A stretch of 64,000 nucleotides of DNA from Owenia fusiformis (GCA_903813345.2 CAIIXF020000001.1:14942001-15006000), one strand, 5' to 3'. Counted from the first letter of the stretch, positions 31,728 through 58,700 are shown. Numbers and translations are program-made. The notes: generated by a model not told the origin, from the sequence alone.

Positions 31728-34700
31728 TTATGGCAACGCAAACGTCTGAAAATATAAAACAAAATGTTTAAGACACCTCTCCAAATTCAATGGTTTTAAA
31801 AGAAAATAAATAAAAAGTAAAGATCGACGTAAAGATAAACATACCCTACAAAATCCTTCTACACACATTGATTTCTCCGTTGCTCCAATGTCACTATAGC
31901 TACAAGCAGTGCCATCTGGGAAAAATGCTGACCTGTGTGAACCAGCAGTTCCGCGCGTGACTCGACAATTTACGTCACATAGGTTGTCACCTGGAAAAAG
32001 AAAAGGCTACATATGGAATCCTATTATTGTCATGAAAACTTTCATTAAAAGTTTATTATATATCTGAAAGTTATTTTGGGCACCAAAAGTGAGGTGAGGT
32101 ATGTGGTATTCTTGTGGTCTTCTTGCTTTTCAATCTTCTGACCTGTTACAATTGAGGGACTAAATTCAAGCATGAATTCACTTTAAGACACTATCAAAAT
32201 GGGAACTTGCATTTGCAAACTTATGGAGGAGGTGTATACCTCCATATATATTTTGGGCATCTAAAGTGGAGTGAGGTATGTGGTATTCTTGTGATCTCCT
32301 TGCTTTTCAATTTCTGACCTGTTACAATTGAGTGACTAAATTCAAGCATGACTTCACTTTAAGACACTATCAAAATCAAAATGGGCACTTGCATTTGCAA
32401 ACTTATGGAGGAGGTGTATACCTCCACATATAGGAACACCGCAATACTCCCATCTTCTACCAGGATCAGTAGTATAACACCATGGCCCACCTATCTCATT
32501 GTCAGGATTTCTAGAAATAGACGAACGAGTTATACTAATTCTTTGTGTATGGGAATCAAATTTGGGAGGTACATACAATACACCTATCAGGATCTGTTTC
32601 CTTATGAGCTCTTATGAAACAGAATTAACCCCAAATAAGTAGCAAACCGCACTGACCTACAAAAGTTTTCGGCAGCTGCTAAAGAGCCATCTGGCACCTG
32701 CCAGTCTCTTACTCGGTGTGTATGCGGCGTCTGCGAATCCCAACGCTGACACGGTCTACCTCCCACAGTCATACTAGTCTCACCCATGTAGAGTCTACCC
32801 ATTGTGCCTGGCTTACAGTCTTCATCAACTTATATAAGCACAATACACTTTCCATATATATTAGTGATTTTTTAAAGCTTTGGTAATTAAAGAAGGAATA
32901 CGTTTTATCAAAGTCATTGATTGTACAAGCTGCACGTGTACACATCATTATGAATAAAAAAGAAATATAGATATAGGCCCTTTCATTATATATTAATCTG
33001 GACATAGGTGGCATGAAGAAGCAAAGATATTTTACCCTCCCCCAGTCCTGCCCACTCTATGTCTCCCGTCAACACAGAGCTTGTAGTGTGGTTGAGGCAT
33101 ATTTGTCTTCCCAAATTACGTATCCCTTGCTCCACCGTCTCTATGTCTTGATCATCAGCATTACAATCCTTCAAGCAAAACGAGAGCACATAGTACATAT
33201 ACCTTAACTACAGGGTGTCCCGAAAGTATGCCCCCCCCCCTAGGCAGACTTATACCAATGTCTCCATAGTATGTGTCATATATCATTTTAGATCCTATCC
33301 AAAGTTACATTGATTTGCCAAGAAGTATCATGGTTCAACTCACAGACGGTAAAACGTTACAAGCATGTCAAAACTTCGTGTTTGGCCAAAAATATAGTTC
33401 ATTTCAGTATCGTGGAAACAGCAATGACCTGAATGTGGCCGAAAATATGGGTGCTTTTGTCGAAGATAAGATGGCTATTGAGTTCTATAAGAGGACGTCG
33501 AGGGTAGATACTCCAAGGGAACTCTTCTAAAATGCCTTAAAAAGGTTTTAAGAGGATTACAAAACGCCACATCCCTATTTGAAGCGCGTATATATATATG
33601 AAAAGCATTGCTGATGTTTACATGGCCTAGGGAGACACACCGACTATTATTTTGGTGTTAAATTTACTTTAAATTTGGCCAAACACTAAATTTTGAAATC
33701 CCTGTAACTCTTTCAAATTTGTAAGTTGAACCATGATACTTGGCAAATCAATGTAACTTTGGATGAGCTTTAAAATGATGTATGACACATACTATGGAGA
33801 CATTGATATATGTCTGCCTAGGGGGGGGGGGGGGGTATACCCTGTATATGTATGTAGGAGTTGAGCAGCGTGTGTGTGTGGAATATCTAAGCACGAGTGC
33901 CAAAGGGATAGAAATGTCTGTTGTGCTTTCTCTGGTGTGTTCGAGCTTTAACATCTGCTGCCTCTAGTCAGATCGACTAACAAAACAACCATTTTTTGGG
34001 GTTGTAGAGCGTGTCCTCGACCTGTAACATCGATTCTAAACATATGATCATTTAATGATCTAGAGACCATAATTGACCTTGAATTTTGACGCCCTATATG
34101 GGAGCCTGTCCCTACATTGGCAGAAGAGTCAGGGAATTTTGTTAACATACTATTGCCCCCAATAGTAAGTTGCCGTGAATTTTATTTCAGCCGATTGATT
34201 CTACTTCATCCCTGACTATTAACATTACATGGGGTTTACCTTAGCTTGTACAGTCATCATTGCGTATCACTTGGATACATTTGATGGAACAATGACAATT
34301 TAGTGTAGTAGGAAGGTATGGTCCCCATGCACCCGAAAGATGTATTTTTTTAATGTACATTTTTGTAATCCTAAAGGTCCATACTAAAGATTTTTGCATG
34401 TTCCTAGAATGAAATATTGTCTCATGGTATCCATTGGCGGCCATCTTGTCAGCCATCTTGAATTTTTGAAAGAGTTGGTGTTAATTATCTCAAAGTACAG
34501 TTTTGAGAATTGAAAGCTGTAAGTGGTACCAAAATGAAGCTTTTATAGTATCCTATATTATCAGATGCAATAATTATGCAAATTGCCTCATTTGCATAAA
34601 ATGTGACATCATCAATCATAATTCTTGCCTCTTTACAACGGTATCGCATTATACCTTTCCGCCTGAGTGATCAGTCTTAGTCATTCATGAACATAAATGA

Positions 34701-37700
34701 ATTTAAATATATAGGTACATTAATTTTGAACATATTTGCAATTGAAAGTTTTGGAAAAAACATTGTCAGACACATGATTATGTAACTGAAAAGGGGCGTG
34801 GCACTTCTTGCGAAAGAATTGATGTTAATCATTTCAAAGTACAGTAACTTCCACAGTTTTGAGAGTTGAAAGCTGTTAGTGGTACCAAACTGAAGCTATC
34901 ACGATATCCTATATTATAAGATACAATAATTATGTTAATTACCATATTTGCATAAAATATGACATCATCAATCATTATTTTTGCCCTTTTTCAACGTAAT
35001 GCCTTTTCCTCTGAGTGACCAGTCTTGGTCTCTTATGAATATAAAGATATTAAATGTATACATTCATTTTAAACATATTTGCAATTGAAAGTTTGAACCT
35101 ACAGGGTGTCCCGAAAGTATGGGCCCCCCCCTAGGCAGACATATACCAGTGTCGTCATAGTATGTATCATATATCATTTTAAAGCTCACACAAAGTTACA
35201 TTGATTCACCAAGTATCATGGTTCAACTCTCAAATGTGAAAAAATCACAGGCATTTCAAAATTTAGTGTTTGGTCAAAATGAAGTTCAATTTTACACCAA
35301 ATCACTAGTCAATGTGTCCTTCCGGGCCATCGTAACAGCAGCAATTCTTTTCGGGTCAGATGGATATTGAGTTGGAAAAAGAGAATGGTGAGGGTAGAAA
35401 CTCTAAGGAAACTCTTCTAAAGTGCCTTAACAGGTTTTAAGAGGGTTATAAAATTCCACACCCCTATTTGAAGGGCTTTTAAGGTCATATCTGAAAATAA
35501 TTGGTGCTGTTAACATGGCCAAGGGGGGACTCATTGACTAGTAATGTGGAGTAAAATTGGACTTTATTTTGACAAAACACTAACTTTTAAAATGACTGTA
35601 ACTTTTTCCCACTTGGGAGTTAAACCATGATACTTGGCACATCAATGTAACTTTGGATAAGCTTTAAAATGATATATGAGACATACTATGAGGACACTGG
35701 AATATGTCTGCCTAGGGGGGGGCCCCATACTTTCGGGACACCCTGTATTTGCATTGAAAGTTTTAGAAAAACATCATCAGAAATTAAGGTATGACCTTTC
35801 AAATGATTATTGTTCTGAAAAGGGGCGTGGCACTTGTTGAAAATCTGTAATGTTATTATATAGTCAATGTATCATTTGTAAAATACCCAGGGGTTCACTG
35901 AATACACAATTCTGTAGGGGTCCTAGGCTGAGCCCTCAGATATCATTATGTTCCCATACCAATCTGTCAAATTTCAATGTGTTCCCATACCAACCAAAAT
36001 AATGCCCAAAAGCCATACCAAATATCCAAATATAAGACCAATGCTATATCAAATGTCCAAATATAGGACTTTTGCCATTTCAAATATCCCAAAAATATAA
36101 GACCAATGGAATGCAAAATGTCTAAAGCCCCTTGAAGAAGGCAGAACTTTTAGGAAATGATCCTAAACAACCTCAAATAAAGGACATTTGTTAAAACTAG
36201 ACCAATCCCATACCACAAGTGAGAGGTGACCTATTCTCCATGACCATTCTTGTACCACAAAGTAGAAAAATCCGACCATTGTCATACCTCAAAAGTCATA
36301 TTTTGGGGGGATTCTCATTCCAGATCCTAAACTTTGGATCCATTGCCATACCAAATGTTAAAAGAGGTACCCCCTTCAAGGTTTATATACAGTGAACCCC
36401 CCGGTGTAAAATATAGCTTTTGACTTTTAGAAAGTAGCCCAGTGATGTCCCTTATTCCTAGCTTGTTCAGAAATTCTTGTTGGTCAGTTTGGCAGACATC
36501 TAAATTTCAGCCAAAGATATATAAGCTGTATCGCTTTTGAACTAAGTACTGTACAGATACGAATGACCACATATCCCCATATCATTTTAGGATAGGCAAT
36601 GAACTGAAATGGGTACCCACAGTATTTAGTTGTTAAAGCTATATAATTAACTCAATATGTATTAAGCCTGTACCTCAGTCCAATGTTTTATCCAAGACAT
36701 CCGACTGGACTCTCAACTGACCTCTTCCAAAAACTCAGTGCTGATGTCAAAACACAGTAGGTGCGAGGACAAGGAGTGGAGGAAACATCTGTGAAACACC
36801 ATTGTGTTGGGCCAAGTAGAAGACAGAAACTTCTCTTGGGAAGGAGAGATGAAGCCTGCAGTGTTAGTGGACGGCTTCATCACTGGCAAGAGAGCTCCAA
36901 CAGATGCTTCTAAAGAGATTACTTCAACTTAGTCATCCAAAGATTCTTCTTCCAAAGATAGAAACACTCAGGAAAAGAGAAGCATAGGACCAGGAAGACA
37001 TTCTTTAAAAATCTCTATAGGCTCACATCAAATTTGTTAGGGAACCAAAGAGTGCCCATATGGCATGCACGCAGGATCAATCAGAAGCAAATACTTTGGC
37101 AGCACACAGTGACCCAGATCGGTGATGCCATTGGGTAATTTTCCAATTGACATCCCACCAGATTTATCATCAAAACCGTTTGACAAGTCAGATTTCAAGC
37201 TTGATGAGGTAAGAACAATCATCAGGAAGGCTCAGCCTCAGGTCTAACAGGTGTGACATACAGGGTCTACAAGAACTGCCAAAAGCTGTTAATACATCTA
37301 TGGCGATTGCTAACAAGCATTCAGAACAAAAAAATCTAGCAAGGAATTGGACTTTGGCGGAAAGGTACTTCATTCCAAAGGAGCTAAAATTTGAGCGACT
37401 GAACCAGTTCAGGTAGACATCATTATTTGATGCTGAGGGAAAGATCTTCTGGGCCATTATGGTCAAGCCTCGAAGTTGTTTCCTAGTGGCCTGCCAAGCA
37501 TCCAGAAAAGTGGTCTCCCAAGACATCATGGGGTACATATAGCAGCATAAGCCAACTTGTGAAGGAAGCCAAGAAAGAGAATCAGTAGTTTGGCTGGACA
37601 GAAGGCCCACCTAGTGTCCCTCACCAACTGATACTAGAGGTACAAGTTCACTTTCACGTACATGTACCAAAACCAACAGATGTAGTCAATCTGACAATGG

Positions 37701-40700
37701 GAAACACAAACTCCTTGAAGTTGCACAATACATTTTGCAATTATACCACTAATTAGCAGAGTTCGGAGAAAGGCATAGTGGCAGACTGCCCTATATTAGT
37801 AGTTCTCTTCGTAACATCCATGAACTTACTGCTAAATGCAGGGATGATGCAGTGTAAGGTTCCACAAGCAAATGAAGGTGCAAAACACCTACCATACAGA
37901 GCTTTCATGGATGACATCACAGTTATGACCAGTTCAGTAGTGAGTACCAGATGGGTTCTATTAGCTATGTAAAGAATGGCAAACTGGACTTGCATGAAGT
38001 TAAAAGCCTACCAGGTCAAGAAGCATGGTTTTGGTCGATGTCAAGCTTTCTCCAATGCAGTTCAAAATAAAAGCAAGCAAATACCAACAGTGCATGATAA
38101 AAGAATCAAATGTCTAGAGAAGAACTATGACAAAACCTTGCGTGGTTTGAACAATACAGCTGAAGTCTCAAGGGACCTGGACAAGTGGCTTAAAGCCATT
38201 GACTCAAGTCATGTATCGGGGCGTTATGCTATTACTTCCCAATTTCAGTGGCCTTTCCAGATTTACGACATTACCTGGGAACCCTCACTTCAGCAATTCT
38301 TGAAATGGAATGACCTTTGGTCCATGGACCGAGGGGAGTTCAATTTCCTATTAAGAGCTTTCCTTGACCTGGTCTCAACTCCATCAAACCTCAGACTTTG
38401 GGGCAAGGAAGAAACTGCCAACTGCCCCAAGTGCATGGCAACTGAATGACACGTACATTAAATCATATACTCAGTATTTGGGTTACAGCTCCCACTGATG
38501 GACAATACAGATGGCGTCATGATTGAGACTGAGGATGCCCATACTTTGATCTGGGCCTATCTTCAATATCTATCTTGCGTTTCTTTGATCTGGGCATTAT
38601 TAACCACTACCACTTCTAACATGTCTCATCAGATTGACTTTTGCATATGTGACAATAAAATAGTCTGACTTAGTATTGTGCTGTCATATTGGAATTACAC
38701 TATCATAATGAACACATCATGTACTCGTAAGCGGTGCACACAAGCTGCAAAATTTGGCCAACATTTCACCAATAAGCAACATTGAGCTCTATCTACATGA
38801 CTCTGCCAGAGCAGCTTCAGCCTTTGAAGTTGACATTAGTGTTTAGAAGTTAACATTTTGAACAAGAAGTGCCCCCCCCCCTTTTTCAGTTACATAATCG
38901 TGTGAAGTGTCAACACTTAATTTCTTATAGTTTTTCCAAAATTTCGATTGCAAATATGTTCAAAATTAATGTACCTATATATTCAAAATCATAAATGCTC
39001 ATGAATAACCAAGACTTTAACACAGAGGGAGAGATATTGGTCGTTACCATTGAAAAAAGCCAAAAATGATAGAGGTTGTCACATATTATGCAAATGGGAA
39101 AGTTTGCATGATTATTGCATTTTTTATAAGTATATTATAATACAGGTAGCTCCATTTTGGTACCACTTACAGCTTTCAATTCTCAAAACTGTGGAAGTTA
39201 TTGTACTTTCAAATGATTAACATCAACCACGGTGCCCATGTCAAGCTGCGCGCCTACTTAGGCGCGCAGTTTGTTTCGATCACAAACTGCGTGCCTATCA
39301 TTTAAGTTGGAGTCTGTAGTTTGAAACGTAATTTAAAGACATTTATCCTGCATTGTTTTCTTGTTCAATGCGTTCATTCTGTGGCGAATATACGAATCTT
39401 GCAAATACTAGCAAAAACTATGTGCAAATGAATCTGAGTTTTAAAACATAAGCAGATTAATGGCATTTTTCGTCATTGATTTAACGGGAATTTATACGTA
39501 AATCGATCTAGCACTTTAAACATAAATGACAAATACTTTAGACTCGTTTTATATTTAATTCCTTACGCATTTATTATGTATAATTCAAAATATTTCGAGA
39601 TAAAACAGATAATCAGGAGATTAAAAAGAAATAAACCACAAACTGCGCGCCTATTTTAGCCAGAAATTACAAACTGTGTGCATACACTATTAAAACTACA
39701 TATTATCATTGGAATTTCTACAGAGGCACGTAAAGGTGTTTTTCATATAGCTTTGGAAATTTTGCTTTATCATCAGATTTTATGAGATTTTCATATTGAA
39801 AGTCAAAATGTATAATAGAAGTAACAATTAAGTTGGGAACGAAAGAAAGTATTTTATTTTCAGATCACCATCTTGGTGGACGGACTCTCATAGTGTTTCA
39901 ATTATGGGGTTCTACTATTAGACACATATGTGCCTTACATATGGCGCTTACGTTTTCTAATAATACAAAACAAGCTTGGATAGGCAAGTTTGGAAATATT
40001 AGGCACGCAGTTTGGGAAATACATGTGAATATAGCCGCGCAGTTTGACAAGAAAAATGTTTAAATCACGTGTATGGCGTATTATCGTTTTGAACACAAAC
40101 TATGCTGCTTTAATCAGATAGAGTGATCCTATATATTCTAGCATACACAGACACAATGGCTGAATAAACGGCATATGACGACAGTAAATTTTGAGCACAG
40201 AAGTTACTTAAGACCCTTATATTGAGATAACTCGGTTAACATCGGGAAAAACATTGAGTACTAAGAGTAAATTAAGTTAATCTTCACAGAATGGTACTAT
40301 CTTTAGAACGAGACTAACCTTGTATTTTTCGTATTTTGGCTCTTTTTGGGAGTCGAGTCCTCCCCATCTTACATTTTGAAATATGCGCGCAGTTTGTCAG
40401 AGTTTCAAACTGCGTGCCTAGTAGGCACGCTGCTTGACATGGGCATCGTGTCAACTCTTTCTCAAGAAATGCCACGCCCCTTTTCAGTAACATAATCATG
40501 TGAAGTGTTATAACTTAGTGTCTGACAATGTTTTTTCCAAAATAAATATGTTCAAAATTAATGTACCTATATATTTAAATTCATTTATGTTCATGGATGA
40601 CTAAGACTGGTCACTCAGGCAGCAAGGTATTGTGCGATACCGTTGTAAAGAGGCAAACATTACGATTAATGATGTCACATTTTATGCAAATGAGACTATT

Positions 40701-43700
40701 TGCATAATTATTAATCTCATAATATGGGATACTATAATAGCTTCATTTTGGTACCACTTACAGCTTTCAATTTTAGTTATTGTACTTTGAAATGATTAAC
40801 ATCAATTCTTTCGCAAGAAGTGCCACGCCCCTTTTCAGTTACATAATCATGTGTCTGACAATGTTTTTCCAAAACTTTCAATTGCAAATATGTTGAAAAT
40901 TAATGTACCTATATATTTAAATTCATTTATGTTCATGAATGACTAAGACTGATCACTCAGGCGGAAAGGTATAATGCGATACCGTTGTAAAGAGGCAAGA
41001 ATTATGATTGATGATGTCACATTTTATGCAAATGAGGCAATTTGCATAATTATTGCATCTGATAATATAGGATACTACAATAGCTTCATTTTGGTACCAC
41101 TTACAGCTTTCAATTCTCAAAACTGTGGAAGTTATTGTACTTTGAGATAATTAACATCAACTCTTTCAAAAATTCAAGATGGCCGACAAGATGGCCGCCA
41201 ATGGATACCATGGGACAATATTTCATTCTGGGAACATGCAAAAATCTTTAGTATGGACCTTTAGGATTACAAAAATGTACATTAAAAAAATACATCTTTC
41301 GGGTGCATGGGAACCCCTCCTTCCTACCCGTCTAATTATTTCAAATGGTTATTTATTCTTTCCTTTTATCATATGTTTGGTACTGATCATCATATGCCAT
41401 TTGGTTGACGTATACAGCATGACGAAACAAATTAATGGACAAGGAAGGTCATTACAAACTTTTCCCATAAATGATAAGTGCAGAAATATCTGTATTTACT
41501 TTTCTTCGGAGATTTATAAAAAACGGGAACAAATCAACAATCAATTCTGTTTAGCTAAACTGTTACGATTATTTTATCATGATTATAGATCATCATGAAT
41601 AAATTAGCAACACATTACCATTTTAAAACTCAACCCGGACTTCCACAACCATATGAACCATGAAAGAATTACAAAAGAATAATTCAAATACTATTTAATC
41701 CCAAATAAGCGTTGATTTCATTCTCAGAATAGGATTCACTCCCCCCCCCCCCCAATGATGTTGGTCGAGTTCTATTCCTTCAACATAACTGGGAATCAAC
41801 GAAACAAACTTAAATTAGATTAAACGATATACCAGCTATGATTTATATGAATACATAAGAAAAATATAATATGTATAATGATTGGATCAGAAAAATGTCA
41901 AATCGTTTCTGCGCTCTCGCCATCAATATGTTGTAATAATTATGTGAATTCTTATTAAAGTGCCAATTCGGTAATTTCCATTTTTTTCCTAACACAAATA
42001 GATTCAATGGGTATTGGTTGGTAGAAACAGTATACCAACAGACTCACATCTTCATTTGATTGTCTTCCAGTGCCAAAATAAGATTTCCCGGAAAAACATG
42101 ACGTCATGATCAGAACCGGTTATGGATTTTAATCGGCAATGCGTTATGCAACGCAAATGTAAATTCAAAAGTGTTCATGATATCCTGTGTTCTGATTGGC
42201 CACAAAGGAGTAACGCTTCTCAAAATCACCTCATGGTTCAATGCCTTTTGGTTGTAAGATTTTAAACAGCATTGAGTTAGTAACAGGATCAACTCAACGT
42301 TTATAGTTTCTATACTGTATTCTGACTGGCCAGAATGTAATTTTGCATGACTAACTTTGTGAAAACGCACCACAGGGTCGGGAGCTCTAATTGAGGAAGA
42401 ATCGTGGCTCCAAAGTAGTCAAAGTTGAATCATTTCCCCACTGCATTGAATGCAGTGGCAATCAATTACACTGACACTATATAAGCACGTCCGGAGATCA
42501 TAAACTCCAGCAACAAGCTAAGTTCAAAACCTGTTCTGATCGTGATGTCATGATTGGCACTTGACATTGGGTTCCCGATTTTGAACATCAAATTTCACAT
42601 TTATAGAAAGATACGGTACATGGTGTGACTTGTAAGTGGTGTTTACTTCATTTAAAACCTGTATAAACTGGATTTTGACCCCATGAGCATCGCACAGACA
42701 CTTTAAAACTGATTCGCTTTTCATTTTTTGGTTTTATAGTTTATAATTGTGTTGGGGGGGGGGAGATAGGTCAAAATTGCCAAATTCAACATCCATAGCG
42801 CTTTTATTTCATAATATTGAACGGACTACATCAGACCAGACCTATGCACGATCCTATAGTTTGTCTATTAACTGACATAACATATTTTCATGATTTGTTG
42901 GTTGAATATAATGTTTCCTGAACACAAAATTAGTTGATTTTCAAATCGCCTTGAAAATGTGAAAAACATTGATATGTAGTACAGGGAAACAAATCCATTG
43001 TAGTTTGGAATTGTGATCCATGTGTATCACACTTTTAATCAATACGTTTGGTGTTCAGAACACGATTATATACTTTAGTGGAGAAAAGATTCAGAGGGTG
43101 AATTCTATCCTCCTTATATTGACATAATTCTGAGAATTTAAAGTTGAATTCTTGAAATAGTGTTGGAAAGCTTCATTATTTACCCATGTACGCAAAATTC
43201 AGAAAGTACACAGAAATAAAAATAGTAGTATGTCATTGAGTTCCAATAACTATAACAACAAGTAAACAAATATAACCATTGATAAGAAAGTTCAAATTCG
43301 TATTTAACAATTACGACACGCTGAAAGCACAATATGACGACTGCTTTTTATGATAAGACATACATGTACAGTGTACATTAGAAATGCAAAATATAATATT
43401 ATTGATAATCACTTGGATACAAACATACAATACAATCATACAAGGAAGAATTAGAATATATTGTTTTAGAACCGAGGGTACATTATGTGAACTTCAATAA
43501 ATGTTGCATATGAGTATTGATAAGCTAAGCAGGATTTTCCTGAAAGTAAGATGAGGAACTCACACATAGTCATTTGCATTAAATAAACTATGTTTTACGG
43601 AAATGAAGCAATAATTCAAAAAGGCAGAATTGAAATACGACATGGCTAATGATAGTAAAAACAATGTAACATGGTGGGATGACATCATGACTAATTATAG

Positions 43701-46700
43701 TAAAAATAGTGATTCATGGTGGGATGGCAGAAATCCATTCAATGACGAAGATCATATATATTGGGCAGGTAAATCATAGAATATATAATATACATGTTTT
43801 GTGTCCAGTAAATGCGTTACGATGATACCTAAACAAATCAGTAATAACATAACTGATACTATGATGTTACTTTTTAACCGAGTTAATTTTCTTACTTGGT
43901 TATCTAACAGCTGAGAGAAACAGCTGATATTCATTTATATAAGTCACTATTAACAAATTAAATGACCTTTTCTTCAGTTCACATGGGAACGTTCGCCATT
44001 CTTGCAGTCATTCACATTGCAACGTTGTTATATCATAGGAAAAATTGGTATGTAACATTTCAATCTAAGAGATTTTAATATGATACATGCACATGGTGTC
44101 ACAATACCTAGAACAATTGATCTACTGGTCTATACTTGAGCATGACCATTCAATTTCATGAATTCCAATAGAAGCTTTTATGGTTTGTTCATCATATTTT
44201 TCTGGCCATAGCTTTCCATACCTTTCAGTCTTTAAAAAATGAACAGAATAAAGTTTTTTATTAAGCCTACGCCACGAATCATACATAATTGTCGAAGTAG
44301 AAATAGTACTACGGCCAAGTGTCCAAAACACCTAGATTCAATTTGACTTTAGATTCCTGTAGGGGACCCCAAGGCATGTAAAAAAAGTTTGTGAACCTTT
44401 GCAAAGCAGGCTCAAAAGTGCTGAGTCAGCAAATTTTATCATTTTCGAGTCGGAGTTTGACAACTATTTAATATCTCATTTGAGGATAAAAACATACGTT
44501 TGGCAATATTTACTATCGACTGATTAAGAAATTTTGAAGAGAAATTATGTACTTCTAGGGACAAATTATCCCATATCTCTACCAAATTTCAGGAATTCTT
44601 CACTCATGCCTTATTGATATACTAACAATGTTTCATTATAATTGCAACATCCTCAAATGAGATATTAAATAGTTTCAATCATATGGTCAAACTCCGACTC
44701 GAAAATGATAAAATTTGCTGACTCAGCACTTTTGAGCCTGCTTTGCAAGGGTTCACAAACTTTTTTTTACATGCCTTGGGGTCCCCTACAAGAATCTAAA
44801 GTCAAATTGAATCTAGGTGTTTTGGACACAAATTGTCTTGGCCGTAGTACTAAAACATATTAAGAGAGACACAATGGTTATACAGAAATTAGCGGATTGA
44901 ATAAAACAACCAAATAAATAGAGGTTATTCACTGGGAGGAATCAATATGTGTTTTATTCCGAGGGACAATATGATATTTCCCGAAGGGCCGGAGGGCAAG
45001 ATGGAAATATCATATTGTCACAAGGGATAAACCCATATTCAATCCCGACCACTACAAAAGCTTTTTATCCCATGATATTCACGACTCAAGAATTCAAATC
45101 TGATTTTTCTATGAAACATAACTTATATATTTCTTGTATAAAATATGACTTAACTTTATGACATTTAAAAATATAAAATTTTGTTGTACAACATAAACGC
45201 ATTAACAACAAAAAATTAAAAATACGCATACATGTCCATTACAGGGCATTCGCATATTGGCATATCTCTCAGATTTCTATGACGTTGACTGTCCGTGTTT
45301 TGTTTGGAAAATATCGTTCCTCACATAAGAACATCATTATAGCACGCTTTATCGTTCCGCCTGAACGTGATAGGAAGCTTAAGCTTTGTAAGCAAACATT
45401 CCCGGGAGGGGAATACCATATTCGCGAGCGGGATTGGGAGGTGAATACAGAGAGAAATATTGATATCATCCCATCCGAGGAATACTCCCCATATCATCCC
45501 GACAGGTGAATAACGACCTTATGACATGGTCAAGAACAACATCTATCTAAAATCCTCTGTTGGATGAGAGAAAGGTTTTGAAAAAATGAAAAAAATGAAA
45601 TTTTTTGAATAAATACCTAGGTTGATATCCATATCATCCCTCTAGTCCCAATATCATCCCTGATATCATCCCTATCCCAAATATGTGATTTATCACTTCA
45701 ATAAGCTGGAAAAATCAACATACATCTGAAGGATATCGTAAGACTATCGTACGGGTATCACAAGGCTATCTGACAATGACTGTACGGCACTCGTCCTGGC
45801 CTCAGCACCATGCATGAGTGTATATAATATACGCGTCAGAAATCTATGCAATATTTCTGAAATACTCACGATTGAGATCGAAACAAGCTGAGACTGACCC
45901 TAACGATCCACCCACTCACCCACCAAAATGTGTTATTCTTTTATAATTTAAATTATGGTTCGTTAAACTGTTCATTCCATTTCTATTTTATAATATAGTT
46001 CTTTGTAAATATATTTCATAACCGAACGATGACCATACGGGACACGACCGGGTAGCTACTGATGAGTTTGGTTGAGAAAATCGGCAATAATATACATTGG
46101 TAACATTTATCCCCGCGATAGAACTTTTCCGGCGCCTGTACGGCATCTTAATATCGGCAGATATTGGCCGATCATTGCCCGGCGCCCACACGATGCCTAT
46201 TGTCATAATATATGCTAACTTACTACCAAAACTGTTTGTTTCAAAGTACTAGTATATGTGAGATTACCAAAATGTACAACTCTGAGTTCAAGTCAATAAA
46301 GCATGTAAATGTTTTGATATAAAGAAGATTCTTAATCTGGTCTTTACGTAATATTTAGAGTAGTTCTGATAGAACTTTATAGATCCTTATACCTATGACG
46401 CGGTATCGCCGCCAGAACCGCGCGAATAGTCGCGCGAAAAATTTATGTATTCCGGGCGAATGTTTTTTATTCCCGCAATTGATTTTAACCAATAAAAATC
46501 CTGCGTCTGCATAAGTAGTCGCCCGGAATATTGGTTACCGTCGCCCGGAGATACCCAACCAATGGGATGGCACATTAATGCTGAAAAATTCGACCGTGTC
46601 AAACCAATAAATGAAAGCCATCTTCACAACACGATATTCGATCCACCACGTGATATTTCCAGCCTTCAAATTAAGTACAGGGTGTCCCGAAAGTATGGGG

Positions 46701-49700
46701 CCCCCCCTAGGCAGACATATTCCAGTGTCCTCATAGTATGTGTCATATATCATTTTAAAGCTTATCCAAAGTTACATTGATTTGCCAAGTATCATGGTTT
46801 AACTCCCAAATAGGAAAAAGTTACAGTTATTTCAAAAGTTAGTGTTTTGTCAAAATAAAGTTAAAATTTTCACCACATTACTAGTCAATGAGTCTCCCCC
46901 TTGGCCATGTTAACAGCAGCAATTATTTTCAAATATAACCTTAAAAGCCCTTCCAAATAGGGGTGTGGAATTTTATAACCCTCTTAAAACCTGTTAAGGC
47001 ACTTTAGAAGAGTTTCTTTAGAGTTTCTACCCTCACCGTTCTCTTTTTCCAACTCAATACCCATCCGACCCAAAAAGAATTGCTGCTGCTAAGATGGCCC
47101 GGGAGAACACATTGACTATTGATTTGGTGTAAAATTGAACTTAATTTTGACCAAACACTAAATTTTGAAATGTCTGTAATTTTTTCACATTTGAGAGTTC
47201 AACCATGATACTTGGTGAATCAATGTAACTTTGGATAAGCTTTAAAATGATATATGACACATACTATGACGACACTGGTATATGTCTGCCTAGGGGGGGG
47301 GGGCATACTTTCGGGACACCCTGTACATGTCATTTTTCAAATATTTCAAGTCTAAATATTGCTATATGTTGTAAAAGATGATTATTAATTCATGAACCCG
47401 ATAAACAAATATATACTGTAATTGTAAGTTTTATTGCACTAGTTATTTGGTAAATATAGGTTTAAAACAGTTAGATTTACATTTAGAAGGGAAATGTGTT
47501 GATGATGATAATGATAGAAAATGTTCCTTATCGTTGAGAAATTAATCAATTGTTACTATCAAGCTTGAGAATATTCAACAGGAATTTATTTAGAACTCAT
47601 TTTTGCTTGCCAAATAGTACTTCAGTAATAATTATATGTACAGGCAACAGATAGAGTAGATCGCACACTTAGACAACACCCCTACCAGCCATTAGATGCA
47701 CACGAATATGAAATGATGGTTGAATTGAATATTTCGGACTTCAAGTCAAGATGGCGGCAGTAAACAAGTAAACATGGTTTTGAATGGTTTATTTAAGTCG
47801 GGCGAATTTCAGATTTGAGAAACAATAGCGCGAATAAAGTATTTTTTCTATTGGTTCATCAAGATCGCGCGACCGTAATATTGTCACGCGACGAATAAAA
47901 TATTCGCGCGATGGTTCGCGCGGTTCTGGTGGCGATACCGCGTCATAGATGCCCGGGTATTCCGGTCGATTTTGAACAAAATACTCATCGACCGGGCGCG
48001 TGAGATGATATAGATACTAATGTTTACTTTTCTCTGCGCCATACTGCATACTTCAAATCAGAACCCTACTATGCTTGTGTAGATTATGTGCGCTTGTATG
48101 TGGATATCATTCCAGGCATCGTAAATGGTTACCTGGAGAGAAAGCATGCACCAACTTGATACATCCCGAACTTACAATTTATCCAGCCCCTCCATCCGAA
48201 CAAGTGGCAAACTCACCAAGTTATCAATGGAAAGAGTGTCTAAGGTTCAAACTGACTATGCTCGAACGACCAATGATTTTAGACATCGTCCATTGGATTG
48301 GAATGTTCATCATTATCATTTGTATTTGGAGCAGGTCTAAGGAGTTAATCATTGGGACTTCATTCGTAGCATTATTCGACTTCATGCAATTTGTATACAT
48401 GATTAAATTATACCCCGATCCTAAACCCACGAAATTCCGAATTCAACTTACATACGCGGTCATTGCTGGATTTCCAATGGGAACCATTGGAAAAATGGTG
48501 CTTGCACTATCCATGGACGGATATATTCAGCTATATGAAGTACTTGGTGTTTATCAGTATGTATTTGAGGCAATAGCTGGGATCATCCTTATTATATCCA
48601 TAATTGCCATTTTCGCGCTTTGTGACAAATCCAGTAATCATGATGATGATGCATCAGCGTGCACATGTTTCATATTAACAGGGATCATTATACTTATATT
48701 TGCATGTGCAGGGGTAGCAATGGCTGTAATGTCGTATTTATATATGAAGCAACAGAACATTCGAGTAGATGACTTGAAAACGATGTTAAACATAGATGAT
48801 AACTCTGCAGTGCTCAAATCATGTCCATGCTGGACATGGGCCTTCCTTGTAATATGGATACCTCTGATGATTGCGTCGCTTGTGTTCCTTTACGTCTCAT
48901 CAAAAGGTATGTTGAATACCAACTAACTTGCAATTTACATATTCATTGAAACAATAGATTCATAAATGTATTTGTAAATGAGTTGTTTCAATCATACTAG
49001 CAGGGAACTTAGTTGTAGGTTTGCAAATCCCCTGATAAAATTCACAACAATAAGATTTCATGTATGGACTATTGAAATTATATTGTTTCCTTATGCGAAC
49101 TTGACCTAAGACCGGGGACCTGAGATGACCTCAATATTATGTAATGTTTAGCCAAGAAGCGTATATAACCAAATTAATTCATGACGTTTGATCTTTGATA
49201 TGATTTTGATAGATATAATAAAAATATAACTGATTAACACCCAAATCTCACAGTTTGAAGTAGCAGTACCAAGGCGTTGACAAGTAATAGTAAGAGTAAG
49301 TAAGTTGCCCATAAGTGTAAATTGCAATGAATTTTATTCCAGACTATGGATTCTACTTTATCCCTGATTACATAACGCTTCATGGGTTTTACCTTAGTAC
49401 AGTAATCCTTGCGTATCACTTGGATACATTCGATGGAACAACAATGCCACTTATTACAAATGGCTACATGTTATTCCCTCTCATCATGTGCTTGGTGCTC
49501 ACCGTCATATACCACTTGGTTGATGTACATGGGATGACGAGACAAATGACTGATGTACATGGGATGACGAGACAAATGAAAAAGGAAGGATACGAACTTT
49601 TCAGAGTCACTGGGCAAACAAGGAGAGATATAGAGCATCTGTTTAAAAGCACATGGGATCCACAAGAAGCCGGATCTGGGCAAGATACGGGGGGTTTGAA

Positions 49701-52700
49701 ATACTCTCGATATGTCATTACTGATATTGCAAAGTTACATAATCCTACATTGTATAGACGATATGTTGCAGGAAAGGATACATTAAAAAGAAAAAACAAA
49801 GACAAACCTCCTCTTAAACTTGAGCAACAACGACAAAACAGAGAGATATTGCCTGTAAACACGAGTACAGTTGGTTGCACCCATCTAGACTCCATTAGAG
49901 ACAATGACAACAATGAATACTTTTTGTTCCATGGTACTGGCGATGCCACCAGTGTTGACGGAATTTGTAAAAAAGGATTCCTTTTGAGCAGAGCAAGTAA
50001 GCATTCTCTCTTTGGGAAGGCTGTATATCTGGCAGAACGTTCAGTCAAGTCAGATCAGTACTGTGGTAAGTCTACATTCATTAGCCTATGCATAACCATA
50101 CATAACAGTATTACATGTATATTACCATTTGAAACGACGTTATAAAACAGGTGAGGTGAAATAAAAATATTGAATCACATTTTCGTTTTCCAAAATTACA
50201 ATATCGAATTAAACTATTTTTCCACATTTAATTTTAGATGGAAAAAGCTACGAGAATCTTCATATGTTTGTTGTTCGTACATGTTTAGGACGCTCCTTTC
50301 TGAATGATGACTTTAACAAGTATACTGATCTTCCATGCACAAAAAGGGGATGTATGGTTGAAAACTGTAGAAATCATCCTGAAAAGTTTGACACTATCGT
50401 ATCTGACCTTGGAGCCAGAATGAGATTTCGAGAGTTTTTGATATTTGACGAGACACATTGTTTTCCCGAATTTCTGATTGTATATGACAGAGTTGCAGAC
50501 AGCTAGCCTTCTTGTATTAGTAATGACTATTGTTTGCAGAAGCGATGAACTTTATCACCTCCCCATGGACCACGCATGTTGAGAAGGATTACAGATTATA
50601 AGTGTGAAATTATTTTATTTATGTTTCAGTTAATTTCAATATCTCTTTTGTTTCAATTCATTTATATTCATTCATAGAATCGGACAGTTTATATCTGAAT
50701 CAGCAACGCAAGTTGTCATTCAGTGCATAATGTGGAAACTTAGTACTGGAATATTCTTGGTGTGAAATTATTTCATTTAGATTAGGCCTAGTTAGGAAAA
50801 TGATGGGTAAGTGAGTGTTGATTTAAATTAAGAGTCAAGTTCAATAAGATCGCGGCCGGCTGTTGAAAAACAGTATCTTATTCGTTCGAACCCCATACGA
50901 GTCTTTGATTCTGTAAATATTCATTTGTAGATACAACATTTTGTACATTATGTTCTATATATTTGGAGTTATATTATAAAACTTTATAAACTCAAACTCA
51001 TTTGCTTTTGCTTTGGGCAAAGTGGTCATTCTGAAATAAGGTTAATTTTGTTTCCAGTGGATTTTCGAAAGTCCAAATAAAATCCCATGATATTCCGGCC
51101 CTAGCCACACTACCACATACTTGTTGTTAATAGTGGGGCTAAGTTCATTTCAGTGTATTTACCAACATTAATATGTTATTTTATAATTAAGTCAGCTTAT
51201 GTAATAATTTGTTCATGAAATGTTTTGTTTTATTGATAACAGTAGAACTACTCAATTGTCTGATAGAACTTAAAACAGACTAAAATTGAGTAATATTCAT
51301 GTCAACAATAGAGGTATTAAGACAGCCGATGTGGCAAAAAAAATTTTTTAAAAGAAAGGTCACAAACAAAGAGATATTTTAACTGTGTTGAAGAATTGAA
51401 ACGCTTAAAAATGGCTTGTTTTCTAAAATTGCCTAGAATAGCGTTAACATGTAGTGCAACAAATCCATCGTTGTTTGCAATAGGCATTCATTTTAATTTA
51501 CACTATGAGTGGTCAGAGCAGATGTATGCTGAATATACCAAGTATAAAAGGAACTTACTTGATTGTTACAGAGTGCTGCCTCGTAGTAGCTCCCAGGACA
51601 TTTTGTGTTCTTTGGCCTTAAAGATAAAACAAGCAAAATTAAAAATACTTCGTCAAACAATATCCAAAAATATAGTGCTTTAGTCCCTGATCTGGACGCT
51701 CTGAAAAAAGTTTTGTTGTCCGGTACTTTCCCACATAAAATGATTGTACCGTTTGAAAGAATAGACTTCCCTCTTTAAGAAAACACCTCTTCTATTGATG
51801 TAAACAGAGGCAAAAGGCACCAAAACGGGGTTAGACAAGGTAGCATTCTGAAGTCTCACTTTCTTGTCATCACGATTCCAGGTAAACCATCAGACGGATT
51901 TACTTCAAATTTTCACACATGTTACATGGTAAGAAGTTCTAGAGCTGATTAACTTTGCGGCGGCCATTTTGCATTCTGGCAGCCATCTTGGAATTTTTTT
52001 CAGATAAATATTGTCATCGCGATTCCACAAAAACCACATAACAGATGTACTTCAAATGTTCACACATGTTACATGATAAAAAGTCCTAGACCTCATTATT
52101 TTTTCGGTGGCCATCTTGCATTCTGGCAGCCATCTTGGAAGTTTTAAGATAAATCTTGTCATCACGATTTCAGGAAATCCAAACGGATTTACTTCAAATT
52201 TCCACACATGTTACATGGTAAGAAAATATAGAGGTGAATAACTTTTTGGCAGCCATCTTGCATTCTGGTGGCCATCTTGGAAATTTTGGGATAAATCTTG
52301 TCATCGTGATTCCAGGAAAACAACCTAACAGATTAACTTCAAATTTACACACATGTTACAAGGTATGAAGTTCTAGAGCTGATTAACTTTTCAGTGGCCA
52401 TCTTGCATTCTGACGGCCATTTTGGAAGGTTTATAGATAAATCTTGTAATCACGATTCCAGAAAAACCACTTCACAGTTTTACTTCGAATTTTCACACAT
52501 GTTACATGGTATGAAGTTCTAGAGCTGACTAACTTTTCGGTGGCCATGTTGCATGCCGTCGGCCATCTTGGAAGTTTTTAGATAAATCTTGTCATCACGA
52601 TTCCAAGAAAACCACGTAAGAGTTTTACTTCAAATTTTCACACATGTTACATGGTTGTAAGAAGTTATAGAGCTGATTAACTTTCCGATAGCCATCTTGC

Positions 52701-55700
52701 ATTCTGGCGGCCATCTTGGAAGTTTGTAGATAAATATAAAATACAGTCAAAGCATTTACCACCAACAGAGGATGCTCTCATTCTCCATATAAATAGAGCC
52801 AACTATCAGGCCTATATTTGGCGAAACGCAGGCAAATCAATGATTGATTATCAATCCCCCACATTACATGGTTGGACATTCAAAGGGAATAAACTACAAA
52901 TTAAGTGGATGGAAAACGGTCCTGCCCCACAAGAAATAATGGAGCTTGTTGCTTGTAGTTGTAAAGGAGCGTGTGACTCAATGAGATGTAGTTGTAAGAA
53001 ACAGGATCTCATTTGTGGAAGTTCATGTAAGTGCCGCAAAGGTGTGTCTGAGAACTGTCCAACCCATCAGCACGATGATGTTGATGAGAGCGACAATGAA
53101 TATGAACCAGTTGATGACACCATTACACCAAACGTTGAAGATCAGGAAGAAAATGAATTACCTGAAAATCTCTTACCTGACAACTGGATGAACCAACTTG
53201 TCAAAGTTGATGCCATAATATGAATTATCTCACCCTGTATATACACTGGTGATCCGCTCGATTACAGGTACGATTTGTCCTTATTCCTTATTTCATGCGT
53301 TGTAGGCAGAATCCTCTCGACGTTTTTTCTCACAAACGTGAATCAGTATCATATGTCTTAGAAAATGTACATGTTTGCGAAAAATAGCTCAGAAGACGAC
53401 AGAATCGTCGATTTAATTCCTAACTTAAGTTACATAAAGGTTTGGGTTAAAAGTGCAGATCTGAACTGTTTTTTCGAATTACCGTTTATGTAACTTAAGT
53501 GAGGAATTAAATGTACGATTATGTTGTCTTCTGAACTATTTGTTTGCAAATATGCACATTTTCTTAAACATATGATACTGATACATGTTTGTGAGAAAAA
53601 ATGTTGTGGGAATTCTGCCTACAAAGTGTGAAAGGAAAAAGGAAAAATCATACCTTCGATGTTCCCACATTTTGTTTCCGAAACAAACCATTTAGGTAAC
53701 CAGCATAATCGAGTGGATCACTATAATATACTTTAGTAGTCTTTAATAATGTTAGGGAGGATGAGTTGTAAGGCATAATATGTCATGTTAGATCATGATC
53801 TATACTATTTTTATTACAATTTACCAGTTACACTTTCTCCATGCTAGGTTCTGTTATAACTTTTGTTCCGTTTCCTATGGCATCCGTGCTTTATACATTT
53901 ACATTCACAATGGTCCCTTCCTGGTATATTTTTTTAGGTTTTATGACTGTTAAATTATATAGTCTAGTTAACACCACTTTATAAACAGGTTTATTATTAC
54001 TGGTGTAACTAACACAACGAAAAAAATATAATTAATTTATTTGATTTTATATAACATGAAATTATTTTTTCTTTTTGATAAAACATTGCTTATTAGAAAT
54101 ATATTTAGTTGAAAACTTAGAGTAAACAATCAGTTCTTCTATCACAGTTTATTTTGGTTCAGTAGATTTTTCTATACATTATTTTTATGTCACCACCACT
54201 AGTGATTGGGTGACATATTGTAATAGCTTCGAACGTTTATCTTGACACTGTTCAGTAGTTAATGTGTACTGTATACTTAACAAGGTGTGGTGACATTTTG
54301 CATTTTTCTGCATCGTCACTACTATTGAAAGCTTATGTTGATATTGTAGCAGTGTTTTTTAAGTTCTTTTTGTTGGTACAATTAGTTTCCAAACCCTTAC
54401 TTATATCGATCTGACACACAGTTTTAGTGCAGGTTTAAGTGATTTTTGTTGATTATTAAACGCAAAGAGCACATGTGTCTCAAACTCGCAACATTTTGGA
54501 TACAGAGCCCATTCACATAGTTTGACATGCTGGTGCTCTCAACCAGCTCGTTAGTTAATATCTGACTAAGAGACAGCTTGCTTTCCCGATGAAGAAACGT
54601 TGTCTGCAGCTTTTATGAGTACTAGTATCTACAACTATTTTTGATCTGTTTATTCCCATATTAGATTATTGTCTTGGGATATTCAGGTTTGATTTTTGTT
54701 TGCCAGTTTTACACTTTACAGTTTGCTTTTCCCACTAGGTTGCTTTACACTTTTTCCTTTCTCATTTGTCATTTTTGTTTATATTTAGTAAGGATATGAT
54801 ACGCAGGTCTCTCCTTCTGTGTGATCACCTGTCCAGAAGATAATTCAACTGCATGAAGAACATTTCATTGACATGATGCACAGTGAAAGGTTTTCCACAC
54901 ATTTACATTTTCGTTTAAAAGAGCTTTAATTCCGTTATATACTCAGATCAAGGCCAATTTAGCATACATTTCGCTCTCAAAAACCACTGTACAATAATGG
55001 ATTTCAAAGAAATGTTTGACGTTTTTAATAATCTTTTTCTTTTTGATGAAATGTAGTTATTTATTCTTAAAATCAATCGATGTCATACACAAAATGCATT
55101 TAAGTGGTATAAAGTACAGAAGCAGAGTAAAAATATGTATTTTAGAATATCACCATGTGTTACCCCATTGTAGCGCCTCTTGCCCATGTTTCTATCAATA
55201 TAAAACATGATAGCATACACCAAATATGCATTTATGTCAAATTATGTGGTTTAAAATACAGAAAAATAGATAACATTCTCCTTAGAATACCACCTTGTGT
55301 AACCCCACTTTACTGCCTTTTGCCCCTGTTTATATCAATATAAAAGGTAGCATGTAACCTTCCTTGTAACATGTGTAAAAGTTTCAAAAAAATCAGTAAA
55401 GTGGTTTTCCTGGAATCACAATGACAAGATTTATCCAAAAAACTTCAAAGATGGCCGCCAGAATGCAAGATGGCCTACGAAAGGTTAATTAGCTCTAGAA
55501 CTTCTTACCATGTAATATGTATGAAAATTTGAAGTAAATCCGTTTGGTTTTCCTGAAATCGTGATGACAAGATTTATCTTTAAACTTCCAAGATGGCTGC
55601 CAGAATGCAAGATGGCCACCGAAAAAATAATGAGGTCTACAACTTTTTACTATGTTACATGTGTGAACATTTGAAGTACATCTGTTATGTGGTTTTTGTG

Positions 55701-58700
55701 GAATCGCGATGACATCTAAAAAGTAATATACAAGTATTGTTAACTCACGCAGGAGAATCGCACGACCTTATTCTTTTTCTTACACCTCCTCCGCATGTGG
55801 AAGTACATTGAGTCCATGCACCCCACTGGCCCCAGGTACCCAGGACTACTTGGGGACGACCCAGGTTTTCCCACAATCTATCAGCATCTGTAGTCCAGTC
55901 CGTGCATCTCGTGTTCCGTCTACACCACTATTGAAAAATGAGATAGACGTGTATGTTTCTGCTCACTGTCCAAAATATACGTTTATTAATTGATTTTGCA
56001 CAATAGAGATCTCAGATATAATATATTTCAAGTTTGGAGTAAAATATAGAATGGCGCTCACTTTGTTTTCATAGCAATACGTTCCTTCTACGTTCCCTAC
56101 GCGGAAAGCTGTCCTAATATCATAGTTATCATAGTTGATACATTGTATGTGAGCATCACAGGTACCCTACAAGGAACGGGAAAGACCATTCTTAATATTG
56201 TATGCCATTAAAGTTATTGGTACATATTCATCTTATTAACTGCTTTGACCTTTTACAATACGATTTTTAAAGAATAATAGGATTTTACAATATTGTTGAC
56301 ATCTTACTAGTTGTGTCAACTTCTCAAAGGATTTTGAAATAATGAGAATTTTACAATATTATTGACACTATCGTATTGATCGCGCTGAGTTTTTACAATA
56401 AACATTTTCAGAGGATAACAGAATTTCGCATATACTGCGCTCTCTTTAAAGAAGCAAAGTCGAATTAACGGAAAGAGTAAATTTTGGACTCCTGGTTTTA
56501 CACAAATGGTTTATAAAAAGTACATTTCATATTCTTAAACTTCTAACATATATTCTGTTGACTTGTGTGTGACCCAAGTCCCCTCGCCCCGTGGTTACAA
56601 AGTATTCTTACCCTACTTGTACCATATATGTATCCCTTATTGCCATCATCTTTCATGTACGTAAAACTGGAGCCAAAGTGTTTCTCACATTGCTTATTAA
56701 TATCCAAACGTTGGCCTGGCAGTTCGTGTCCTTCTACCATATTAGGTAGTTGATAGTGCTCATATACGTTGTCATATACGCAAGCATTTGCACCTAATAT
56801 CCTGTAAACATAGTTCTCGATACAACACTGACAATGATCGCCATTAAAATATTTTAAAAATCCATATACTATGTATCCATCAATATACTAGGGTAGTAGG
56901 GTTCTGTTACAAAGTTCCGAATGTGGCAGAGTTATTGATAAGTAAAATATACCTCATCCTATTGATGAAACTCTCCGCTCCACATGGGGAGTAGCCAGTA
57001 GATCCACCACTCATCATATATCCTCTTGGTGACGGCAATCGACAGTCGTCACGTCCAGTGTAGTCAACATCGTGCCTCATACCCATACTGTAAAGCACAA
57101 GTCACATTTGCTCTACGGCGACAGTACGTCGTTCGTAGTTCGTTGAAATCAGTAAATTTCTACGGTGCTCGTAGGAAAACTGCGACCGCCTTGTGGTCAC
57201 CATGCGGCGAACCCAGGTTTTACAGGCCGTAGAAATTTTAACTTGCAGTAAGAGATGATCAGTGTAACATTTCATTGAAGCATCATGAGCAAGGTGTAAT
57301 AAGGTAGACATTCCGGTAACGTAGAGTGGGTTGAAATGCGCCTGTTATACAGGGTGTCCAAAAAAAAACAGGACCGTAAGAAAGTTGAATAACTCGGTCA
57401 ATTTTGCATATTTCGCCTTGAAATTTTAGAATTACTTAGTTCATTCAATGTGAATTTTGTTCCAAAAGTTTAATGATAATCTGTTCAGTGTGTCAAAAAC
57501 TACAGTCCTTTTCAAAACATGCTCAAAGTGGGCACTTCTCCTCTCTATGCACAAACGAATTCTGCGAACAAAGTTGTTAATGACCCTGACCTATACACAT
57601 TAATGTGGATGGTAAATATTGGGGTAGTTATTGCCCTCTTAAGATTGTTAGGGGCCTGTCAGTATACTCATTGGCTTTGAGAAATCCTCAAAGATAAAAT
57701 TTGGGGGATTTAGATCAGGCGAATGAGGTGCCCTTGCCCATATGGTTTGCGTTCTGCTGATGAGCTGATGAGCTGACCACCAAAGCATTGCCTAAACCAT
57801 TTCAGCATATCATTTGCAGTGTGGGGGTGGTATTGGCTTGTTGAAACCACTGCTTAATTATCTCCTTAGATGTCCCTTCTGGTGCTTAGTGACCTCCAAA
57901 ACTAGGTGAGAACTTACTGGTCCTTGTTCATGGTGATAGCACGTCCACAGTCACCTTCGAACCAAAAGGGACTGATGATTCCATGTTTCCTCATTGCCAC
58001 CCAGGCAGTGCATTGTTCAGAATGCAATGGATGCTGTAACACTTCATCAGGAGGATGTAAGCTCCAGTAGCAATTGTTCTTTGAACAAACTTGTCCATTC
58101 AGAAAGACATGTGTGTAGGAGGATCATCAACAACTTTGTTCGCCGGATTGAATTGAGCATAGAGATGAGAGGTGCACATTTGAGGCATGTTTTGTAAGGA
58201 GCTGTAGTTTTTGACTCAATTGATAGATTATTATCAAACTTTCACAACAAAATGCACATTGAATGAACTAAATAATTCTGAAATTTCAAGGCAAAATATG
58301 TAAAATTGACCGAGTTATTCAACTTTCTTACGGTCCTGTTTTTTTTGGACACCCTGTACTACTGTTATATATTAGGACTGTCTTGTCACGGATGAAAAGA
58401 TGAATGAAGTCAAAAATTATACAGACATTATTTGCAAGATGTTCACAGAACCATATTCCTCAGTTTAATTGGAGTAGTTTTTGTTTATAAAAAAGAAGAA
58501 ATGACTTAAGTGTCTCCATATGCTTACGTATGTCCCAGTTCATGAGCGACACATATGAGTCCACTGAAATGCGCATTTGCCTGGCATATAGAAGCAGTGT
58601 TTCTATTGTGACACAAACCGTTTACCCACGCCCAACCAACTGCTCCGCAAACGTTCCTGAATTAAAGTAAAACGTGTCTGGTTTAAAGGAAAATCGTTGT

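Follow-up and report, generated by a model that had tools for sequence, protein, structure and literature searches.

A 64,000-nucleotide (nt) stretch of Owenia fusiformis DNA (GCA_903813345.2, CAIIXF020000001.1:14942001-15006000; the window, in which all positions below are counted) carries on its plus strand, at 43642-50506, a locus that joins a many-pass membrane domain to a PARP catalytic domain. We read this locus as a real five-exon gene for a 659-amino-acid (aa) integral membrane ADP-ribosyltransferase, with a probability of roughly 60%. What we observe directly is how the gene is built, which domains it encodes, its catalytic residues and a colinear homologue; the topology, the activity, zinc binding and a regulatory role of the membrane domain are what we infer. 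Judged from its sequence, the product probably functions as a membrane-tethered ADP-ribosyltransferase that faces the cytosol. The fused many-pass and PARP architecture is rare and apparently undescribed.

The window is eukaryotic, with a guanine plus cytosine content of 32-41% in 2-kilobase (kb) steps. The exons were located by tblastn of a deposited O. fusiformis protein against the window, together with boundary tests. This protein (CAH1773241.1, here P0001) is a 455-aa 'unnamed protein product', identical (100%) to exon 1 and to a 216-residue query taken from the membrane exon. The five exons join into a frame of 659 codons (1980 nt), whose sole stop is the terminal one at 50504-50506, and all four introns have GT..AG ends with pyrimidine-rich acceptors. 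Exon 1 (43642..43768) starts with the ATG at 43642 and encodes an acidic N-terminus, matching P0001 residues 1-42 and bearing three N-x-S/T sequons (aa 3, 8 and 18); it ends in phase 1 and is directly followed by a GT donor. Exon 2 (43978..44047, 70 nt), which was absent from the preliminary description of this DNA, supplies the greater part of helix 1 (aa 42-60) together with the basic residues behind it; two AG/GT pairs were tried for its boundaries, and this pair alone leaves the frame open. Exon 3 (48116..48906) encodes a basic loop of about 55 aa, followed by helices 2-7 (aa 119-326). Exon 4 (49343..50065) covers the weak helix 8 (aa 338-356) and helix 9 (aa 373-391) and, past a short linker, the opening part of the PARP domain; exon 5 (50238..50506) provides the remainder of that domain, including a Cys/His insert, the catalytic Glu636 and the stop.

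The fusion of the helices to the PARP domain is visible without assuming any splice, because a single open frame in exon 4 runs through helices 8-9 and on into the PARP domain, of which it covers the first 60%, His and both Tyr included. The stop-free plus-strand frames extend over 48021-48926, 49321-50145 and 50213-50506, and the junctions 48906/49343 and 50065/50238 between them, already named in the preliminary description, are canonical GT..AG and in phase. P0001 agrees with exons 1-3 and goes on for 103 codons into exon 4, and thus uses the former junction. The proposal of a polytopic membrane region fused in frame to a PARP domain is thereby borne out by the 659-codon frame, by exon 4 alone bridging the two parts and by the colinear homologue, and the peptides quoted for it (FHGT, SDQY, FREF and the Cys/His insert among them) all lie in plus-strand frames. 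In addition, a 29-nt stretch is directly repeated without mismatch at a 30-nt period (49521..49579, plus strand; copies 49521-49549 and 49551-49579), which doubles a decapeptide in the linker just past helix 9; the homologue P0002, described below, is without the repeat, which appears as an alignment gap.

The PARP domain is complete. Exon 4 matches the Pfam PARP family (PF00644) with an expectation value (E) of 1.4e-9 and 38.2 bits, above the gathering cut-off of 26.7. Exon 5 alone (88 aa) has no Pfam match and no solved-structure sequence match; it shares 41% identity with the C-terminus of P0002. A PDB sequence search with exon 4 gave 41 sequences at E<=1, the best being tankyrase-2 (E 2.3e-5), followed by PARP15 and PARP14. 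The FLFHGT motif and the Tyr-bearing stretch of the window protein fall on the His and the two Tyr of tankyrase-2, and its FREFLIF pairs with YREYMIF of P0002, in which the Glu sits where PARP15 has Leu. The claim of a complete ARTD domain with His, Tyr and Glu therefore holds, with PF00644 matched above its cut-off and the residues aligned to tankyrase-2 and PARP15. The motifs FHGT, SDQY and FREF start at aa 525, 566 and 634, and the Cys/His insert starts at aa 603. The residues in question are His526 (49930-49932), Tyr558 (50026-50028, in VYLAE) and Tyr569 (50059-50061, in SDQY) in exon 4, and Glu636 (50432-50434, in FREF) in exon 5. By their alignment, His526, Tyr558 and Glu636 constitute the His-Tyr-Glu (H-Y-E) triad and Tyr569 is the second tyrosine. 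Using the PARP1 numbering H862/Y896/E988, we take Tyr558 to be the triad tyrosine and Tyr569 the nicotinamide-stacking one, so the residues of the earlier H-Y-E assignment stand, except that its triad Tyr moves from SDQY to VYLAE.

Since the His that binds nicotinamide adenine dinucleotide (NAD+), both Tyr and the catalytic Glu are all kept, the catalytic domain is probably active. Chain elongation by poly-forming PARPs depends on more than H-Y-E, including the structure of the donor loop. The preliminary description treated H-Y-E as the triad of the poly-forming enzymes, which is overstated: one source reports that it is not the only marker of polymer formation, PARP-3 and PARP-4 being mono-enzymes (PMC5322727). 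H-Y-E is no proof of polymer, and single units versus chains are not readable from the sequence. The Cys/His insert (aa 603-617, 50333-50377, plus strand) lies in the loop preceding the catalytic strand that carries the Glu. P0002 keeps three of its Cys and a nearby His, and from these two sequences the insert may be zinc-binding. Clade placement is ambiguous, with the window protein closest to tankyrase and P0002 closest to PARP15. Pfam searches of the window exons, P0001 and P0002 gave no match to an ankyrin, SAM, WWE, macro or zinc-finger domain.

The homologue came from a HMMER scan with the 216-aa exon 3 peptide, which gave four proteins at E<=0.001 among 1,835,955,588 representatives: P0001 itself, P0002 (9.8e-14), P0003 and P0004. 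P0002 is an uninterrupted open reading frame (ORF) of 647 aa, carried by a 2603-nt contig that was assembled from a public run, and it matches Pfam PARP with E 5.1e-15 and 56 bits over profile positions 24-197 of 199. BLASTP pairs it with the window protein in a single segment (residues 77-655 versus 52-646, 32.6% identity, E 2.4e-93), which continues unbroken across the codons of both junctions 48906/49343 and 50065/50238. Identities are spread over the whole length, with 73/249 in helices 2-7, 23/63 in helices 8-9 and 103/254 in the linker and PARP domain. A search for the same architecture, as recommended in the preliminary description, thus yielded a full-length colinear homologue. The remaining relatives, P0003, P0004 and P0005, are short and stop where exon 3 of the window stops. 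Their tails look as if a phase-1 GT donor had been read through; all three are probably exons of genomic origin, hence silent on the fusion. A word-indexed search with exon 4 among longer proteins returned P0001 as the sole match from 444 candidates, and one with P0002 returned P0002 alone among 8000 scored candidates. No relative was found in an alignment-based search of proteins of 1134-3235 aa, and a scan of metagenome contigs gave 32 pattern matches, 0 of them confirmed.

The membrane domain begins with an N-terminus rich in glycosylation sequons, followed by eight strong and one weak hydrophobic helices. Eight separate segments reach a Kyte-Doolittle value of at least 1.5 (19-mers), in agreement with the roughly eight hydrophobic segments first noticed; the ninth (aa 335-353), at helix 8, has a maximum of 1.21. 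In a membrane-family alignment of five sequences, 14 columns are invariant: D154, Y160, G184-F185-P186, G188, K192, D200, Y202, F216, P303, W305, T306 and W313. Among them are an Asp in helix 3, a Gly-Phe-Pro-x-Gly-x3-Lys motif in helix 4 followed by Asp-x-Tyr, and a Pro-x-Trp-Thr ahead of helix 7. These conserved polar residues within helices suggest that the membrane domain does more than anchor the enzyme, for example by sensing or binding something.

The membrane domain matches no Pfam family at threshold, and none of the 15 PDB sequences that its family profile retrieved at E<=10 is a membrane protein; 12 of them are PARPs, drawn in by residual PARP columns. As judged by these searches, it is a new, nearly orphan family. 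The Tweety family (TTYH, PF04906) was considered and rejected: it scores 15.7 bits over 50 residues of the window exon, versus a cut-off of 31.8, and the match is repeated by P0001 alone, which has the same sequence, with none in P0002, P0003 or P0004 at E<=0.1. Foldseek rows of TTYH2 have template-modelling scores (TM-scores) of 0.15-0.18, from a poor model. In the ESM Atlas the best score is 0.79, inside the stated noise, and a repeat search gave no usable match; a TMEM117 row (score 0.75) was rejected. A Foldseek search of the PDB with the better AlphaFold2 model gave 0 matches at E<=0.001 (best E 0.12, TM-score 0.13), and fold-level support is absent because both structure models are poor.

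A topology with the N-terminus outside, nine helices and a cytosolic PARP domain is favoured by the sequons and by the balance of lysine plus arginine (K+R), which is 19 in the proposed inside versus 9 in the proposed outside regions; we give this predicted arrangement about two chances in three. AlphaFold2 places a helix of low confidence at aa 336-358. In this arrangement, the short acidic sequon-bearing N-terminus would lie on the extracellular or luminal side, nine helices would span the membrane, and the PARP domain, beginning about 20 residues past the last helix, would face the cytosol, where NAD+ is available. The enzyme would most likely modify itself and membrane-proximal proteins.

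Several observations weigh against a functional membrane ADP-ribosyltransferase at this locus. P0001 is without the PARP domain, most of which is removed by a gap in its alignment to the window. RNA sequencing (RNA-seq) was checked in two raw runs (X11 and X12, about 6% of each read). The reads on the window (457 and 398) all fall within 44232-48135, in the intron 2 repeats, and depth is zero in all 14 exon-covering bins of both runs; expression is low or absent, a statement confined to these two samples. A public-run search listed no RNA run matching the locus, and the four best 'RNA?' candidates are DNA-like. In two such DNA-like runs, X1 and X3, contigs pass uninterrupted through introns 3 and 4. 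They contain eight exonic differences (among the 40 of 125 listed), of which five change a residue and three are silent, and one of them turns Tyr202, a family-invariant position, into His. These differences may reflect weak constraint or paralogue contigs, eight being too few for a test. The ORF of P0002 is uninterrupted and the window gene has four introns, which suggests a spliced mRNA or a retrocopy, so that its standing as a spliced transcript is suggested by the open frame; P0002 could also be a paralogue from the same species. AlphaFold2 models on 5- and 6-row alignments reached a predicted local distance difference test (pLDDT) of 46.4 (predicted TM-score, pTM, 0.40) and 36.6. Finally, helix 8 is weak at 1.21, and with eight helices the PARP domain would face outside.

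The deposited model offers one different account, namely that the protein made is a 455-aa membrane protein without a functional PARP domain, the PARP sequence being skipped or deleted. P0001 skips 585 nt (49653..50237, plus strand), then continues in another frame of exon 5 and ends 21 residues later. As described in PMC9977687, the gene models were made with Trinity/GMAP, StringTie, Mikado, Augustus and PASA and transferred from an earlier assembly, and 99.29% of the filtered transcripts are stated to have RNA-seq support; given this transfer, the gap might be a real 585-nt deletion allele. However, all five possible placements of the junction are non-canonical (AT..AG, TG..GA, GG..AT, GG..TG and GA..GG), and the ATGG found on both sides is a 4-nt repeat typical of template switching or microhomology deletion. 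Because of this non-canonical gap, the 3' end of P0001 looks wrong; the gap may stem from template switching, from the lift-over or from a deletion allele. Moreover, both the 585 nt left out by P0001 and exon 5 in its correct frame are open and conserved with P0002 to the last residues, and the 15 listed joints of the two DNA-like runs include none of this kind, though run X1 has zero depth in bin 49600-49843. We consider it improbable that P0001 is right. A somewhat less improbable, still unlikely account takes the gene for a lineage-specific duplicate that is silent or decaying, its frame still open but free of selection. The exons without reads in both RNA-seq runs, the five non-synonymous versus three synonymous differences, the invariant Tyr included, and the degenerate paralogue fragments upstream (34153-34292, with an in-frame stop, and 41326-41457) would fit such decay. 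Yet a frame of 1980 nt with four intact canonical introns and all catalytic residues is unlikely to last long unselected; the RNA-seq covers about 6% of each of two runs, and the eight differences are too few for a test.

The remaining alternatives concern the membrane part. With eight helices, the PARP domain would lie outside or in the lumen and act as an ecto-ADP-ribosyltransferase, whose conserved Cys cluster in the catalytic domain would form disulfides; only eight segments pass the hydropathy threshold, the ninth staying at 1.21. Against this, aa 335-358 are among the best conserved parts between the window protein and P0002 and are helical in both low-confidence models, the K+R distribution of 19 versus 9 fits nine helices, and members of the PARP family are known as enzymes of the cell interior that use the NAD+ there. 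We regard an ecto-enzyme as improbable, on a par with a correct P0001. A doubtful extension of the cytosolic arrangement is that the nine-helix domain senses a ligand, ion or lipid and controls the PARP domain 20 residues behind it, as a receptor-type ADP-ribosyltransferase. The Asp of helix 3 and the Gly-Phe-Pro-x-Gly-x3-Lys motif of helix 4 would then form the sensing site, and the enzyme would resemble, by analogy only, receptor kinases or TRPM2 with its ADP-ribose-binding domain; no such class of transmembrane signalling enzyme is known in animals. Far less likely still is a scramblase or channel like XK/Xkr8/CED-8 coupled to ADP-ribosylation, as the preliminary description had suggested from a loose likeness in helix spacing and one motif, FEAIAGIIL. 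Some role in transport or lipid handling would be in keeping with the conserved Asp and Lys inside the membrane, but the Glu of this motif is G, S, G and S in the other four aligned sequences. In addition, no XK-related Pfam match exists in the window exon at E<=1 or in any of the four family members at E<=0.1, the family profile found no XK-related chain among its 15 PDB sequences, and the listed Foldseek rows contain none, the model behind them being poor.

The cytosol-facing ADP-ribosyltransferase favoured here can be compared with known PARP systems. PARP16 is without a catalytic Glu. It is a tail-anchored mono-ADP-ribosyltransferase of the endoplasmic reticulum (also ARTD15), described as membrane-held with a cytosol-facing catalytic domain (PMC3372510). 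The window protein likewise has its PARP catalytic domain at the membrane and, on the predicted side, facing the cytosol, whereas PARP16 has a single C-terminal anchor behind the catalytic domain and the window protein has 8-9 helices ahead of it. PARP16 does not appear among the PDB matches of the window exon (41 at E<=1) or of P0002 (20 at E<=0.01). Jwa & Chang 2012, cited in PMC5322727, reportedly deals with membrane-held PARP16. Tankyrase-1/2 (PARP5a/b) is the best solved match of exon 4, sharing the aligned His and both Tyr and the H-Y-E triad, but no tankyrase is among the 20 PDB sequence matches of P0002 at E<=0.01. The tankyrase catalytic domain contains a zinc site, and the window protein likewise has a metal-type Cys/His cluster inside its catalytic domain. 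The cluster of the window protein lies past the LGRSFL strand, whereas that of tankyrase is directly past the second Tyr. Tankyrase also has ankyrin clusters and a SAM domain, unlike the window protein.

The clade-3 mono-ADP-ribosyltransferases (PARP15, PARP14, PARP12 and ZAP/PARP13) are the best solved matches of P0002 and rank second for the window exon. P0002 aligns with PARP15 over the entire catalytic core (E 4.7e-6). Unlike the window protein, these enzymes lack membrane helices and are equipped with macro, WWE or zinc-finger domains; the third residue of their triad is Leu or Ile, whereas the window family has Glu there, aligned to the PARP15 Leu. Full-text literature searches found no many-pass PARP in print. 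Perina et al. 2014 mention a 'PARP12-like' protein of a sponge whose transmembrane domain is N-terminal, and PARPs of Rhizaria that also have a transmembrane domain (PMC4245714). These share with the window protein a transmembrane region N-terminal to the PARP domain; the paper speaks of 'a transmembrane domain' and mentions no many-pass bundle, which sets them apart by description only. The novelty first implied is accordingly narrowed to the many-pass form, transmembrane PARPs as such having been mentioned before.

The surroundings of the gene contain paralogue remnants and repeats. On the plus strand, 34153-34292 is 82% identical at the DNA level to the beginning of exon 4 and its acceptor and contains an in-frame stop, and 41326-41457 has 49% protein identity to the helix-9 region. 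By these identities the two stretches are paralogue remnants, 7 kb apart, with repeat copies between them. A repeat family occupies 46665-47325 in intron 2, with copies at 35100-35758 and 33209-33831, and contains inverted halves (46675-46929 versus 47073-47326) that are 87.5% identical. This repeat has very high depth in the DNA-like runs, is the sole part of the locus covered by RNA-seq and is probably a transposable element. Also in intron 2, a 549-nt palindromic stretch (44304-44852) is 78% self-complementary. In intron 3, both DNA-like runs have contigs that lack a 46-nt stretch (49147-49194), which makes it an indel polymorphism against the reference.

On the minus strand, significant Pfam matches mark PAN (62672-63181), Kringle (62559-62759 and 62079-62285) and TSP_1 (55745-55927), and sub-threshold matches indicate an M12B propeptide (63647-64000) and ADAMTS_CR_2 (56543-56887). 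By eye, 55745-64000 also shows a C-type-lectin-looking exon without a Pfam match and 'GMRHD', a metalloprotease remnant motif, giving the unusual order M12B propeptide (weak), PAN, Kringle, lectin-like, GMRHD, ADAMTS Cys-rich (weak) and TSP_1. A further sub-threshold minus-strand match, ADAMTS_CR_3/Adt-1 at 31728-32006, is an exon that nothing ties to the gene at 55745-64000. A complete HExxHxxGxxH motif was found in no frame of at least 30 aa. It is plausible that an ADAMTS-like minus-strand gene carries the PARP gene in a 24-kb intron. Of the earlier proposal of nesting in a protease intron, the analysis bears out minus-strand exons with PAN, Kringle and TSP_1 matches, while for a protease it gives sub-threshold ADAMTS matches and no complete zinc motif of the above form. 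If these exons do encode an ADAMTS-like protease with PAN and Kringle, the combination would be uncommon. Elsewhere in the window, 19407-19846 (plus strand) contains two overlapping frames of about 140 aa with Pro/Ser/Thr-rich tandem repeats (PSTRA-type) and a mucin-like look. Open frames without a Pfam match are found at 52681-53223 (180 aa) and 37973-38449 (158 aa), both on the plus strand; the former has a Cys-rich block and an acidic tail, and related short motifs at 51953-52147 and 55495-55767 suggest a repeated element.

For the PARP family, membrane-bound members in the literature surveyed are single-anchor proteins such as PARP16. The family described here is tiny, with a predicted activity, and may prove a lineage-specific curiosity. 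The public gene model seems to miss the enzymatic half of the protein, which matters for PARP gene counts in spiralian genomes. A many-pass domain joined to an H-Y-E enzyme would place ADP-ribosylation at the membrane, possibly under membrane-embedded control, and the fusion would offer PARP biology a new architecture.

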